Of a stretch of 64,000 nucleotides of DNA, positions 13,141-17,109 are shown in pieces. The first letter of the stretch is position 1, and every line of letters begins with the position of its first letter. The DNA is taken from assembly GCF_045037415.1 (NCBI RefSeq), contig NZ_CP173438.1; one strand, 5' to 3'. The translations under genes and the position numbers were made by a program. Origin of the DNA: Escherichia coli (lineage in GTDB: Bacteria; Pseudomonadota; Gammaproteobacteria; Enterobacterales; Enterobacteriaceae). The notes below the pieces were generated by a model. It ran no database searches, was not told the DNA's origin, and saw only the letters and a list, made by a program, of their open reading frames with translations.

Positions 13141-13232
13141 ACCCCCTTGAACTTCGCAGGACGGCTATTTCCCACTTTGCTGATCTGGAGGCAGAGGCCG
13201 TCCGTATAAATGAGGAGATGAAGCATGGCTGA
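12817..13232 (+). CDS. Tail assembly chaperone, predicted -1 frameshift extension product (GT-like)
   Basis: Slippery heptamer T_TTT_TTT at 13068..13074 in the zero frame; the -1 frame stays open to TGA 13230..13232, abutting the tape-measure ATG at 13225. Confidence 0.5.
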
Positions 13233-15126
13233 TAATTTTCAGCTGAAAGCCATCATCACCGCCGTTGACAGGCTGTCCGGCCCGCTTAAAGGTATGCAGC
13301 GTCAGCTTAAGGGGTTTCAGAAAGAAGTCTCCAGCCTTGCTCTGGGCGCTGCCGGGGCGGGTACTGCAATAATGGGGGCACTGGCACTCCCTGTAAAATC
13401 AGCCATCACCCTTGAATCGAAGATGGCTGATGTCCGCAAAGTGGTGGACGGTCTGGATACGCCGGATGCGTTTAAGGCCATGACGGAGCAGGTACGCGCT
13501 TTGTCTACTGAGCTTCCCATGTCTGCAGACGGGATCGCGGAAATTGTGGCGGCTGGCGGTCAGGCCGGGATTGCACGTGATGAACTGATGCAGTTTGCCA
13601 CTGATGCGGTGAAGATGGGCGTGGCCTTTGATACCACGGCTGAAGAGTCCGGGCAGATGATGGCCCAGTGGCGTACTGCGTTTAATATGACGCAGGATGA
13701 AGTGGCTGGGCTGGCTGACAAAATCAACTACCTTGGTAATACCGGCCCGGCGAATGCGAAGAAAATCTCCGATATTGTTACGCGTATTGGTCCTTTAGGT
13801 GGTGTTGCAGGTGTGGCTTCCGGCGAAATCGCGGCAATGGGGGCAACCATTGCCGGGATGGGCGTGGAGTCAGAAATTGCCGCCACAGGGATCAAGAACT
13901 TCATGCTTTCCCTGACCGCGGGAAATTCAGCGACAAAATCGCAGAAACAGGCATTACGTTTTCTGCGGATCAATCCGAAGAAATTAGCTGCTGATATGCA
14001 GAAAGATGCCCGGGGAACCATGCTGTCTGTACTGGATGCGATGGCTAAAGTGCCTAAAGAAAAACAGGCAGCTGTGCTGAATGCCCTGTTCGGGAAAGAG
14101 TCTCTGGGCGCGATAGCACCTCTGCTGACTAACCTTGATTTGTTGCGTACCAACTTCAGGCGGGTTGCGGATTCCCAGCAGTATGGCAGTTCGATGCAGA
14201 AGGAATATGCTTCGAGGGCAGCGACGACGGAAAACCAGCTTTTACTTCTGCAAAATCAACTTGATGCCATTTCTTCCACTCTGGGGGAAACGTTTCTTCC
14301 TGAGGTTAATGATGGTCTTGAAGCGGTAAAACCGCTCCTTGAGGAAGTGAGAACGTTTGTCCGTGAAAACCCGGAGCTCGTTAAGACCATTGCTAAAATC
14401 GGTCTGGCTTTACTGACAGTGGGGGCCGCTGCAGGCTCTTTGTCCAGAATCATGAAAGTTCTCGGCGGTGTGATGAATATGACGCCTGCTAAGGGTCTGA
14501 TTGCTCTTCTGGTCGGTGCCGCTTACCTCATTATTGATAACTGGGAAACCGTAGGTCCTGTCATAAAAAAAGTCTGGCGCGTGGTGGATGAAACGGCGCA
14601 GGCGATGGGGGGATGGGAAACTGTTCTGAAAGCGATCGCCCTGTTTATGACAACCAAATGGGTTGCTGACGTTACCAAATCCATTACCGCAGTGACCAGA
14701 GAGATGCGTACGCTGGGGAAGGTGTCGGCAGAAACGGGATTGATGGGGAAAGGCCGCGGCTTTATCGGGAAGGCCGGGGTATATGGTTTTCTGGGAACCC
14801 TGATGTATGAGCCGGTTAAAGATACTCTGGAAAGTGTTGTTCCTGAAGATACAGTTAACTGGCTGGATAATAAAGGGCTGTTTCTGGCTTCAGACTGGAC
14901 GCCTTTTTTTGATCGTAAAGAGTACGAGCAGTATCAGGCCAGCCTGAGTCAGTACAAACCCAATGTTCCGCTGTTGAATCCATCTTCTTCCATGACACAG
15001 CACAGCGAACTGAAAGTCACGTTCGAGAATGCTCCGCCAGGCATGAAGATAATTGATGTACCGGGCAAAGCCGATCCCCTGATGAAAATCACGCACGATG
15101 TGGGGTATTCTCCATTCAGGCGATAA
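13225..15126 (+). CDS. Tail tape measure protein
   Basis: 633 aa, Ala/Gly-rich with helical repeats; position after the chaperone. Confidence 0.9.
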   Translation: MADNFQLKAIITAVDRLSGPLKGMQRQLKGFQKEVSSLALGAAGAGTAIMGALALPVKSAITLESKMADVRKVVDGLDTPDAFKAMTEQVRALSTELPMSADGIAEIVAAGGQAGIARDELMQFATDAVKMGVAFDTTAEESGQMMAQWRTAFNMTQDEVAGLADKINYLGNTGPANAKKISDIVTRIGPLGGVAGVASGEIAAMGATIAGMGVESEIAATGIKNFMLSLTAGNSATKSQKQALRFLRINPKKLAADMQKDARGTMLSVLDAMAKVPKEKQAAVLNALFGKESLGAIAPLLTNLDLLRTNFRRVADSQQYGSSMQKEYASRAATTENQLLLLQNQLDAISSTLGETFLPEVNDGLEAVKPLLEEVRTFVRENPELVKTIAKIGLALLTVGAAAGSLSRIMKVLGGVMNMTPAKGLIALLVGAAYLIIDNWETVGPVIKKVWRVVDETAQAMGGWETVLKAIALFMTTKWVADVTKSITAVTREMRTLGKVSAETGLMGKGRGFIGKAGVYGFLGTLMYEPVKDTLESVVPEDTVNWLDNKGLFLASDWTPFFDRKEYEQYQASLSQYKPNVPLLNPSSSMTQHSELKVTFENAPPGMKIIDVPGKADPLMKITHDVGYSPFRR

Positions 15127-15190
15127 TAACCCTACTTTAATCAAGTAGGGTTATTGAGTGGTAAAGTTTGTGCTGAATGTAGGAGAGAAT

Positions 15191-15679
15191 ATGAAGAAAA
15201 TGTTTATATTGTTGTTGGCTGCAGGACTGCCATTAAACTCCTTTGCGAAGCCAGTAACGGAAAAGCAGCTTGCTACATACTTTATAGATAACGTTAAAAC
15301 TTCAGCAGATAAGAATATAGATCTAGATGTAGGTGGAATAAATAGACTGTCTGTAATATGCCCAGCAAAGTCGGCAAGTGGAACTCTTTTAATAAAAAAA
15401 GCATCCTACGAGTTTAATAAAGGTATTGGTGTTTTTGATTTTGAAAATAACTCACAATCTGCACCATTGGCTTTTATTGTACCAATTAGTGAGGATGAAA
15501 ATAACTTTGACTCGGAAATTATTGGTTTCTCTTTTGCATTTAAAATGCCAAGAGGGCAATTCTTTGTTGATGTTACGAAATCAGGGAAGGTAAAGGCTGG
15601 CGTAAATATTAGTGGTGAAAGCGGAATTACTTATTCATCATGTAGAATAGATACTCATAATGTTGATTATGATCTTTAA
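15191..15679 (+). CDS. Secreted hypothetical protein, 162 aa; AT-rich cargo gene inside the tail module
   Basis: ATG at 15191 preceded by AGGAGAG; Sec-type signal peptide MKKMFILLLAAGLPLNSFA; low GC; own terminator. Confidence 0.6.
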   Translation: MKKMFILLLAAGLPLNSFAKPVTEKQLATYFIDNVKTSADKNIDLDVGGINRLSVICPAKSASGTLLIKKASYEFNKGIGVFDFENNSQSAPLAFIVPISEDENNFDSEIIGFSFAFKMPRGQFFVDVTKSGKVKAGVNISGESGITYSSCRIDTHNVDYDL

Positions 15680-15694
15680 TTTTATTACCTAATA

Positions 15695-15722
15695 AAAAAC
15701 CGCGTTTACACGCGGTTTTTAT
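15695..15722 (+). terminator. Rho-independent terminator after the secreted cargo gene
   Basis: AACCGCG-TTTACA-CGCGGTT hairpin followed by TTTTTATTT. Confidence 0.6.
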
Positions 15723-15735
15723 TTGAGGTGACACC

Positions 15736-17109
15736 ATGGATTTTTCTCATATTTCTTCGTACCTATCCTCTAATTCTCGAAGTGGCTGGCGTGAAAAGCT
15801 ACTTGAAGCATCATTTCGAGGTGTGCCGTTTAAGGTTGAAGAAGAAAGTGCGGGAACCGGTCGCCGTGTGGAAACACATGAATACCCGAACCGCGACAAG
15901 CCTTATACCGAAGATCTGGGAAAAGTCACTTTCCGCCCGTCCATCACAGCTTATGTGGTGGGAGATGACTGCTTTGACCAGCGCGATCGCCTGATTGACG
16001 CGCTGAATAAACCCGGTCCCGGCACGCTTGTCCATCCGACATACGGTGAGATGAAAGTCTGTGTTGACGGGGAAGTTCGGGTCAGCACATCGAAAAGTGA
16101 AGGGCGTATTGTCCGCTTTGACCTGAAGTTTGTCGAAGCGGGAGAACTCTCTTACCCCACATCAGGTGCGGCGACGGCGCAGACGCTGATGTCATCCTGT
16201 TCTGCACTGGATGACTGCATCAGTGACAGCTTCAGCGGTTTCAGTATCGATGGCGTGGCGGATTTCGTGCAGAACGACGTTATCGGTAATGCCAGCATAA
16301 TGCTGGGGTATGTTTCTGATGCGATGAAAGTGGTGGATTCTACCGTATCGGATGCCGCCAGGCTGTTGCAGGGGGATATCTCGGTACTTCTGCCGCCGCC
16401 ATCGTCAGGCAAAAATTTCGTTGAGCAGGTGCAGAAAATGTGGCGTACCGGGAAACGCCTTTATGGTAACGCCAGCGACCTGGTCACCATGATCAAAACG
16501 CTTTCCGGTGTCAGCCTCGGCAGCGATCTGCAACCGCGCGGCGTCTGGAAAACGGACAGTAAAACCACCGCCACGGCTACGCAGCAGCGTAACGTGGTTG
16601 CCAGCACCCTTCGTACGACCGCAATCAGCGAAGCGGCGTATGCCGTCACGCGATTGCCTGCGCCAACAACTTCCGCGGTGATGCAGAATTCCGCAGTGGG
16701 GCAGGCAACAACACCCGCGCAGAGCACTGGCTGGCCTGCCGTCACGCATCCGGCACTGAACAATGCACCGGCGGTGAAAAACACGGTTGACCTGCCGACG
16801 TGGGAAGAACTGACTGACATTCGCGACACACTGAATACGGCAATTGATAAGGAGTTGTCCCGTACAACCAGTGATGCGCTGTTTCTGGCGCTGCGCCGGG
16901 TGAAAGCAGATCTGAATGCGGATATCAACACGCGCCTTGAACAGTCTGCACGGATCATTCAGCGCACACCGGATGAGGTTTTACCCGCGCTGGTGCTGGC
17001 GGCGACCTGGTTTGATAACGCGGCGCGTGACGCGGACATTATCCGGCGTAATGCCATTACGCATCCCGGCTTTGTGCCGGTGATCCCTCTGAAGGTGCCA
17101 GTGCAATGA
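15736..17109 (+). CDS. DNA circularisation protein (Mu N-like)
   Basis: 457 aa; position after the tape-measure gene in a Mu-like order. Confidence 0.75.
   Translation: MDFSHISSYLSSNSRSGWREKLLEASFRGVPFKVEEESAGTGRRVETHEYPNRDKPYTEDLGKVTFRPSITAYVVGDDCFDQRDRLIDALNKPGPGTLVHPTYGEMKVCVDGEVRVSTSKSEGRIVRFDLKFVEAGELSYPTSGAATAQTLMSSCSALDDCISDSFSGFSIDGVADFVQNDVIGNASIMLGYVSDAMKVVDSTVSDAARLLQGDISVLLPPPSSGKNFVEQVQKMWRTGKRLYGNASDLVTMIKTLSGVSLGSDLQPRGVWKTDSKTTATATQQRNVVASTLRTTAISEAAYAVTRLPAPTTSAVMQNSAVGQATTPAQSTGWPAVTHPALNNAPAVKNTVDLPTWEELTDIRDTLNTAIDKELSRTTSDALFLALRRVKADLNADINTRLEQSARIIQRTPDEVLPALVLAATWFDNAARDADIIRRNAITHPGFVPVIPLKVPVQ

Follow-up and report, generated by a model that had tools for sequence, protein, structure and literature searches.

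Exported cargo proteins are encoded in or near phage tail regions, among them lambda Lom/Bor, Gifsy-2 SodCI and Cor/Llp, which serve the lysogen in adhesion, resistance to serum, defence against oxidants or the blocking of receptors. Spackle (Sp) of the virulent phage T4, a helical protein and the product of an early gene, inhibits the tail lysozyme gp5 in the periplasm. HK97 gp15 (Juhala et al. 2000; Cumby et al. 2012) is a moron that adjoins the tape measure gene; its product prevents the entry of DNA in a manner dependent on the tail region of the incoming phage, and Lom and Cor are likewise counted as tail-region morons (PMC3594210). Here we describe a locus in Escherichia coli, located in a stretch of 64,000 nucleotides (nt) of contig NZ_CP173438.1 (assembly GCF_045037415.1) that is called the window throughout. 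In the late tail operon of an SfV/SfIV-like prophage, positions 15127-15724 form a moron-type accessory cassette, which sits in a recombination-permissive gap between the genes for the tail tape measure protein and a baseplate hub protein similar to gpN of Mu (here gpN). The cassette carries one small gene, the cargo gene. Among the five features that define a moron (PMC3594210; Juhala et al. 2000), it shows extra DNA, deviant base composition and a terminator hairpin. Tail-operon morons have been known since HK97 and lambda, and the existence of the cassette will not surprise a specialist.

The cassette resembles HK97 gp15 in being a small single gene of deviant G+C content (GC) beside a tape measure gene, with its own terminator, absent from close relatives and with a product directed to the envelope. 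However, gp15 is an inner-membrane, YebO-related protein encoded upstream of the tape measure gene, with a recognised promoter and shown expression from the prophage, whereas the window protein is unrelated to it, is probably a soluble periplasmic barrel and is encoded downstream of the tape measure gene. Spackle is, like the window protein, a small phage protein with a signal peptide and a periplasmic destination, and its action on an incoming tail is the mechanism that we tentatively propose below. The two differ in that there is no sequence or fold similarity between them and Spackle is not a prophage moron; the tail genes of the window showed no lysozyme domain. Lom/Bor, SodCI and Cor/Llp are also exported accessory products of the late or tail regions of temperate phages, but they belong to other families (outer-membrane barrel, lipoproteins, Cu/Zn superoxide dismutase) and have no sequence or structure match to the window protein. 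Our reading, to which we give a rough probability of 0.4, is that the cargo protein is a soluble periplasmic beta-barrel that protects against other phages (superinfection exclusion).

The limits of the insertion were found by comparison with Shigella phage SfIV, whose tape measure and gpN are 99% and 95% identical to those of the window and which is without the cargo gene. Homology to SfIV ends after the stop codon of the tape measure gene and resumes at the ribosome-binding site of gpN, and the break between these two points is the cassette. The same gap measures only 24 nt in SfIV and 45 nt in SfV, in agreement with an earlier note, made by a model from the letters of the window, that had placed an insert between the tape measure and DNA circularisation genes. 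The latter name is the older one for the gene that we call gpN, whose match is to the baseplate hub family phrog_184. The low GC on which that note had remarked is equally clear: the open reading frame (ORF) has a GC of 0.342 and the cassette 0.339, compared with 0.519 for the tape measure gene, 0.553 for gpN (neighbours at 0.52-0.55) and 0.519 for the late region, of which the cassette is the deepest GC trough.

We surveyed the gap in the 80 gpN loci from IMG/VR that are closest to the window's, and it could be measured in the 76 with a locatable tape measure gene (handles beginning with L denote loci, and those with P homologous proteins). It is empty, at 15-27 nt, in 33 of the 76 loci, and contains the window's cargo gene, at about 609-610 nt, in 15. 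The remaining loci hold other genes: phrog_8976 in 12 (164 residues, signal-peptide-like start, GC 0.32; L066 type), phrog_5485 in 13 (176 residues, N-terminal transmembrane segment, GC 0.34; L079 type), phrog_7115 in one (152 residues, GC 0.37; L100), and in one, on the opposite strand, a membrane-anchored protein of 150 residues that matches phrog_8545, 'superinfection exclusion Sie-like' (E-value 3e-41; L098). The apparent cargo of the last locus (L052) proved to be a disrupted tape measure gene. Any relationship of the other cargoes to the window protein was rejected by hhalign. In three of the four other cargo types, the protein has a signal peptide or a transmembrane segment at its start; the L079 and L100 cargoes have clear terminator hairpins and that of L066 a likely one, and the L079-type cargo also has a consensus-like promoter, TTGTAA-16-TAGAAT. 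These results show that the tape measure-gpN gap is a slot with different cargo genes in different relatives. A comparison with relatives lacking the insert had been suggested earlier as a check, and SfIV, SfV and the 33 empty loci supply it.

The cassette was present in 100 of 5426 complete E. coli genomes (about 2%), and the carriers include human, animal and wastewater isolates. The sole phage record with the gene is that of vB_EcoM-720R4 (96% amino-acid identity). At the empty site of SfIV (L002, 3526-3560), the sequence GATAA-CGCAGTCCTT-TTTGAGG resembles the right arm of the cassette's terminator, CGCGGTTTTTATTTGAGG (window 15710-15735). Only about 8 of 11 bases match, a weak indication that the empty state may be a deletion derivative of an occupied one. 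A deletion or rearrangement variant, L013 (3571-3948), has the lysis region (window 971-1782) joined to the cargo gene through about 377 nt of unmatched DNA. It retains a 100% identical cargo gene and gpN but has lost the head genes and, as far as the tape measure, those of the tail, and its breakpoint, window 15138, falls exactly in the loop of the hairpin at the left edge of the cassette (Table 1). The IMG/VR prophage L033 carries insertion sequence IS1 within the 5' part of a clade-2 cargo gene (3258-3984), and in E. coli PEC122 (hit H30) a copy of IS1 is located within or next to the cassette, whose AT-rich DNA seems to be a target of IS1.

The cargo protein is identical to RefSeq WP_001566765.1, a 'hypothetical protein'. 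An in-frame GTG at 15158 would give a product of 173 residues, and we prefer the ATG at 15191, since it is preceded at a distance of 5 nt by AGGAG (15181-15185); the 162-residue frame with a ribosome-binding site that had been singled out in the earlier note holds up as a real gene. The N-terminus of the precursor reads MKKMFILLLAAGLPLNSFA followed by KP, with S-F-A at positions −3 to −1. It divides into MKK, MFILLLAAGLPL and NSFA before the lysine, that is, on reading the sequence, the basic n-region, the hydrophobic h-region of about 10-15 residues (grand average of hydropathy, 2.0) and the small residues at −3/−1 that characterise a signal peptide. No lipobox was seen in the window protein on the same reading. 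Among the other aligned members, 9 of 10 share this layout with an AxA-type site; two of the 10 are N-terminally incomplete, P0015 being without any signal. Every full-length member has a predicted AxA-type signal peptide despite low identity, usually with a lysine next, an equivalent of the Sec-type signal peptide that the earlier note had reported for the window protein. The mature protein is predicted to have 143 residues, a mass of about 15.6 kDa and an isoelectric point of 5.1. The cargo protein is probably exported to the periplasm; of the wording 'periplasmic or secreted' used earlier, export stands, and 'secreted' is better replaced by 'probably exported to the periplasm'.

Table 1. 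Features of the cassette and its two flanking genes. Positions are those of the window; dG, predicted folding free energy; z, z-score; E, E-value.
Feature	Position	Strand	Details
Whole inserted cassette (hairpin, ribosome-binding site, ORF, terminator)	15127..15724	+	598 bp, GC 0.339
Cargo gene, 162-residue precursor	15191..15679	+	ATG 15191, TAA 15677-15679; phrog_5586, E 2e-82
Shine-Dalgarno sequence AGGAG	15181..15185	+	5 nt before ATG; read from sequence
Sec-type signal peptide, MKKMFILLLAAGLPLNSFA	15191..15247	+	n-, h- and c-regions read from sequence; predicted cleavage after SFA
Intrinsic-terminator-like hairpin with U-run	15695..15724	+	dG −20.3 kcal/mol, z −6.3; 0 of 200 shuffles as stable
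AT-rich 14-bp hairpin, perfect, no U-run	15124..15156	+	dG −18.5 kcal/mol, z −5.1; starts at tape measure stop codon
Weak candidate extended −10, TGgTAAAGT	15159..15167	+	No other sequence resembling a promoter seen nearby
Tail tape measure gene (633 residues), left neighbour	13225..15126	+	phrog_28, E 3.6e-142; RefSeq 'phage tail tape measure protein'
Mu gpN-like baseplate hub / 'DNA circularisation' gene (457 residues), right neighbour	15736..17109	+	phrog_184, E 2e-144; RefSeq 'DNA circularization protein'

Database searches placed the protein in a small family. It had no match in Pfam (even at E ≤ 10), in NCBIfam or among PADLOC models (0 families, E ≤ 1), and a search of PDB sequences with the family profile gave no match. 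Its only match in PHROGs was phrog_5586, of unknown function, with no tail or Sie family among the matches. A word-indexed search of 5.8 billion proteins returned close relatives and one clade at 48% identity only, and an exhaustive HMMER search with a 3-sequence profile as query gave 17 matches in 1.84 billion cluster representatives; one of the 17, a 2363-residue repeat protein (E 3e-4), was judged spurious. Full-length members have 148-176 residues, and the aligned homologues range from 49% down to 23% identity. Two cysteines, C57 (15359-15361) and C151 (15641-15643), are invariant in all members, and an FKMPxGQFFV block is well conserved. Members in AFDB50 come from Escherichia, Salmonella, Citrobacter, Enterobacter and Pantoea. 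Nothing was found in the literature under the RefSeq accession, on this slot or on this protein family, and as far as our searches show, both the family and the polymorphism of the slot are undescribed.

The genomic contexts of the homologues bear on whether the protein could be a lineage-specific part of the tail or of its assembly, or else a meaningless ORF. A constant place between tape measure and hub speaks for a tail part: in more distantly related tail modules, P0007 (48% identity), P0012, P0013 and P0014 are encoded in this very slot, P0019 (30% identity) comes after a tape measure gene and a HIRAN-domain gene, and altogether the homologues keep the tail-operon slot in six lineages, down to 30% identity. 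In L115 (2387-3423) the HIRAN-domain gene and P0019 form a two-gene cargo in what seems to be the same kind of slot. Other homologues are found away from any tail genes. P0018, P0020 and P0021 belong to phage-plasmid-like elements, where they are surrounded by genes for ParA, a CI-like repressor, a RecA-dependent nuclease, toxin-antitoxin systems and IncFII RepA. The two kinds of context together show that the protein can do without tail genes in cis and is no part of the tail. The most divergent members (L009, L010, L116) stand alone near MazEF or HigBA-like toxin-antitoxin, IncFII RepA and ParA-like genes, and the copies of L009 and L010 are followed by terminator hairpins of their own. Moreover, SfIV forms virions without the gene, and tails are assembled in the cytoplasm, out of which a signal peptide would carry the protein. 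The earlier note had named homology to a conserved tail component as a finding that would overturn its proposal, and none was seen in PHROGs, Pfam, PDB or BFVD. A meaningless ORF is excluded because motifs, cysteines and signal peptide are kept down to 23-30% identity and the predicted fold is confident. We give hardly any credence to either form of this explanation. The gene that the earlier note had taken for accessory cargo encoding an exported protein is absent from viable relatives, of foreign composition, and has homologues outside tail modules, all of which sustain that view.

The structure of the protein was predicted with AlphaFold2 on an 11-sequence alignment (mean predicted local distance difference test score, 84; predicted template modelling score, 0.78). 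In the model, residues 1-20 are disordered, and a helix (24-41) precedes eight short beta-strands that form a barrel. The strands comprise 5-10 residues (mean about 7.5), and the barrel part about 100. Strand 1 ends with C57, strand 8 contains C151, and since these two strands are adjacent in a closed barrel, a periplasmic C57-C151 disulfide is plausible. Foldseek recovered only the family itself from AFDB50 and nothing from BFVD. The structural neighbours include uncharacterised Burkholderia proteins, avidins, designed barrels, a type VI secretion system immunity protein, outer-membrane barrels, and the PliC, MliC, PhiA and ACP hydrolase inhibitors. None stands out, and the top matches are soluble barrels. 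Eight strands also bring to mind an outer-membrane barrel of the Lom/Ail/OmpX type. Strands and barrel of these lengths are too short to span a membrane, however, and the protein has no match to a Pfam outer-membrane family. Its C-terminus, …NVDYDL, is without the aromatic end signal, and the conserved cysteine pair and the 18-residue helix on the barrel are further points against such a location, which we consider very unlikely.

A rival reading is that of a host-interaction or fitness factor. Such a periplasmic barrel would inhibit a cell-wall hydrolase (animal lysozyme, or the muralytic toxin of a competitor), or bind a small ligand as calycins do, and lysogens would survive better in an animal host or in competition. 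In our reading of the two proteins, the window protein is like MliC in the placing of its cysteines, the first near the start of the barrel and the second in the final strand, and an invariant-looking SASG tetrapeptide recalls the SASGARY of MliC. The human, animal and wastewater sources of the carriers would suit this role, and lambda Lom and similar genes are a precedent for host-interaction morons in tail regions (PMC3594210). Membership of the MliC/PliC family (PF09864) was rejected: there was no Pfam match at E ≤ 10, and hhalign of the family alignment against E. coli MliC gave a probability of 5%, aligning the signal peptides only. We regard a host-directed role as doubtful, though deserving of attention.

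The hairpin after the gene has the stem CCGCG/CGCGG (15700-15704 / 15711-15715) with the loop TTTACA and an extension of A/U pairs, followed by UUUUUAUUU. It was missed by the consensus terminator scan, in our view because the A/U extension of the stem takes up the U-run. Rfam gave sub-threshold matches to Leu_leader (an attenuator model), RNAI and Arrc14 on this hairpin, and no known RNA. The region also folds on the minus strand (dG −19.5 kcal/mol, z −4.8); being symmetric, with an A-run upstream, the terminator could act in both directions. A GC-rich hairpin and a U-run occur 3' of the gene in all six sequence-distinct contexts (window, L004, L006, L008, L009 and L010), and the six hairpin sequences are mutually unrelated. 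The gene's own terminator, claimed earlier for the window, is a predicted structure there and in five other contexts. The AT-rich hairpin at the other end marks the left edge of the cassette; the 720R4-type allele does not preserve its outer pairs. This hairpin might serve in RNA processing or stability, or be the scar of a recombination event.

The position of the terminator within the operon bears on when the gene is expressed. Since it is oriented as the late operon, the gene must be transcribed in lytic growth. In the identical prophage of E. coli DA33137, a DUF1133 gene, which we take to encode a Q-like antiterminator, lies just upstream of the part corresponding to the window, at the lambdoid Q position. 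A Q antiterminator is used by SfIV-type phages (PMC3851460). A terminator that the late polymerase ignores makes sense only if some transcripts start elsewhere, which is the classic reasoning applied to morons (PMC3594210). The gene may instead serve the lytic cycle only, as part of a Q-antiterminated late operon, by excluding secondary infection, sparing progeny from envelope debris or modulating the timing of lysis. Its orientation and the lack of a credible promoter of its own suit such a role, as do the gap of just 16 nt in L008 and the slot position kept in six lineages to 30% identity. However, a mid-operon terminator would be useless to a purely late gene, and yet all lineages retain one, the sequences being unrelated, and the homologues in the maintenance or immunity regions of phage-plasmids stand alone with terminators of their own. 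The occupant of L098 on the opposite strand indicates in addition that the slot supports independent transcription, which counts against expression in the lytic cycle only. We consider a purely lytic role unlikely.

Superinfection exclusion, our preferred reading, would operate as follows. The precursor would be exported by Sec and cleaved after Ala19, and the mature protein of 143 residues would fold in the periplasm into a small eight-stranded up-and-down beta-barrel bearing an N-terminal helix, probably stapled from first to last strand by the C57-C151 disulfide. During lytic growth the cargo gene would be transcribed with the late operon, Q-modified polymerase reading through the terminator into the hub and baseplate genes; in a lysogen, the terminator would stop transcripts that do not depend on the late promoter from entering the baseplate genes. 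The periplasmic protein would then block other phages at a periplasmic step, protecting the lysogen or the infected cell. Candidate steps are the passage of the tail tip or tape measure, local digestion of the cell wall, and transit of DNA.

The basis for this reading is indirect, and consists of the moron architecture, the envelope-directed occupants of the slot, the Sie-like sibling gene, an elevated ratio of non-synonymous to synonymous substitution rates (dN/dS) and the precedent of HK97 gp15. The earlier note had left the role open between superinfection exclusion, receptor masking and host interaction; the tilt towards exclusion comes from the sibling gene of L098, which occupies exactly the same gap beside a gpN 97% identical, has a GC of 0.38 and begins with a membrane segment; it differs from the window gene in its unrelated sequence, its opposite strand and a product that is membrane-anchored rather than cleaved and soluble. 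As for selection, the cargo ORF is intact in 12 of 12 sampled loci, which hold 7 nucleotide alleles. Against the window allele its dN/dS is 0.27-0.94, figures that rest on 1-4 synonymous and 4-8 non-synonymous differences, compared with 0.02-0.11 for the tape measure gene and 0.14-0.26 for gpN in the same genomes. These values would fit a gene that is less constrained than its neighbours, or one under diversifying selection as in arms-race genes. Over longer distances the gene retains its motifs, cysteines and signal peptide.

Several observations weigh against protection from other phages, beginning with the small number of substitutions behind the dN/dS values. 'Sie-like' is a database label, and the argument from position is guilt by association. 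To known exclusion proteins we found no homology or specific structural similarity in PHROGs, PADLOC or the structure searches. Disruption by IS1 indicates that the gene is dispensable to the host under some conditions. Furthermore, the consensus scan gave no plus-strand promoter near the gene, and with a sigma-70 weight matrix the best upstream scores in four lineages were all within background. The best site, which contains the weak extended −10 of Table 1, scored 6.9 with our weight matrix, where the background has a median of 5.35 and a 90th percentile of 7.94; a match common to the lineages, ATGAAA-18-TATTCT, was discarded as merely conserved coding sequence of the tape measure gene. The cargo start of L008 follows the stop codon of its tape measure gene after a mere 16 nt. 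With no convincing promoter, expression in the lysogen is without support from the sequence, and we infer it only.

The cassette belongs to a prophage whose late region makes up the first ~23 kb of the window and combines lambdoid lysis genes with an HK97-type head and a Mu-type contractile tail. This region is identical to a prophage of DA33137 that adjoins zinT, and its relatives include coliphage vB_EcoM-720R4 as well as SfIV, SfV, SfII and SfI of Shigella. The ribosome-binding site of gpN, GAGG (15725-15728), lies directly 3' of the cassette's terminator. The first ~20 codons of gpN (window 15736-15800) are far more diverged from SfIV than the remainder (MDFSHISSYLSSNSRSGWREKL versus MDLSSFPPDLHLLSSSSGWRDRL), and in SfV-type relatives the match to gpN begins only at residue 17-18; by these alignments, the hub protein has a variable N-terminus, encoded next to the slot. 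Two further low-GC islands occur in the late region, one at window 1-900, the 3' part of a RefSeq 'ATP-binding protein' gene before the holin gene (GC 0.38-0.41), and one at 2381-2989, where a DUF2441 gene (GC 0.39) separates the lysis genes from those for HNH/terminase. The two islands are at typical moron positions.

Taken together, at least five unrelated cargo genes, most of them envelope-directed, alternate with an empty site in this slot. The cargo of the window represents a very small enterobacterial family, phrog_5586, that is predicted to be exported and disulfide-bearing and has a confident predicted fold. A wider proposal, which we put forward as speculative and improbable, is that these proteins are an uncharacterised family of periplasmic beta-barrel exclusion factors that intercept a Mu-type tape measure or hub, or another step of entry; the slot would then be a dedicated exchange site for envelope defence, and an arms race with incoming tails would account for the fast amino-acid evolution of the cargo. 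Prophages that differ from one another only in the slot are natural, isogenic-like sets, and they would allow a cheap and well-controlled comparison of these small genes.

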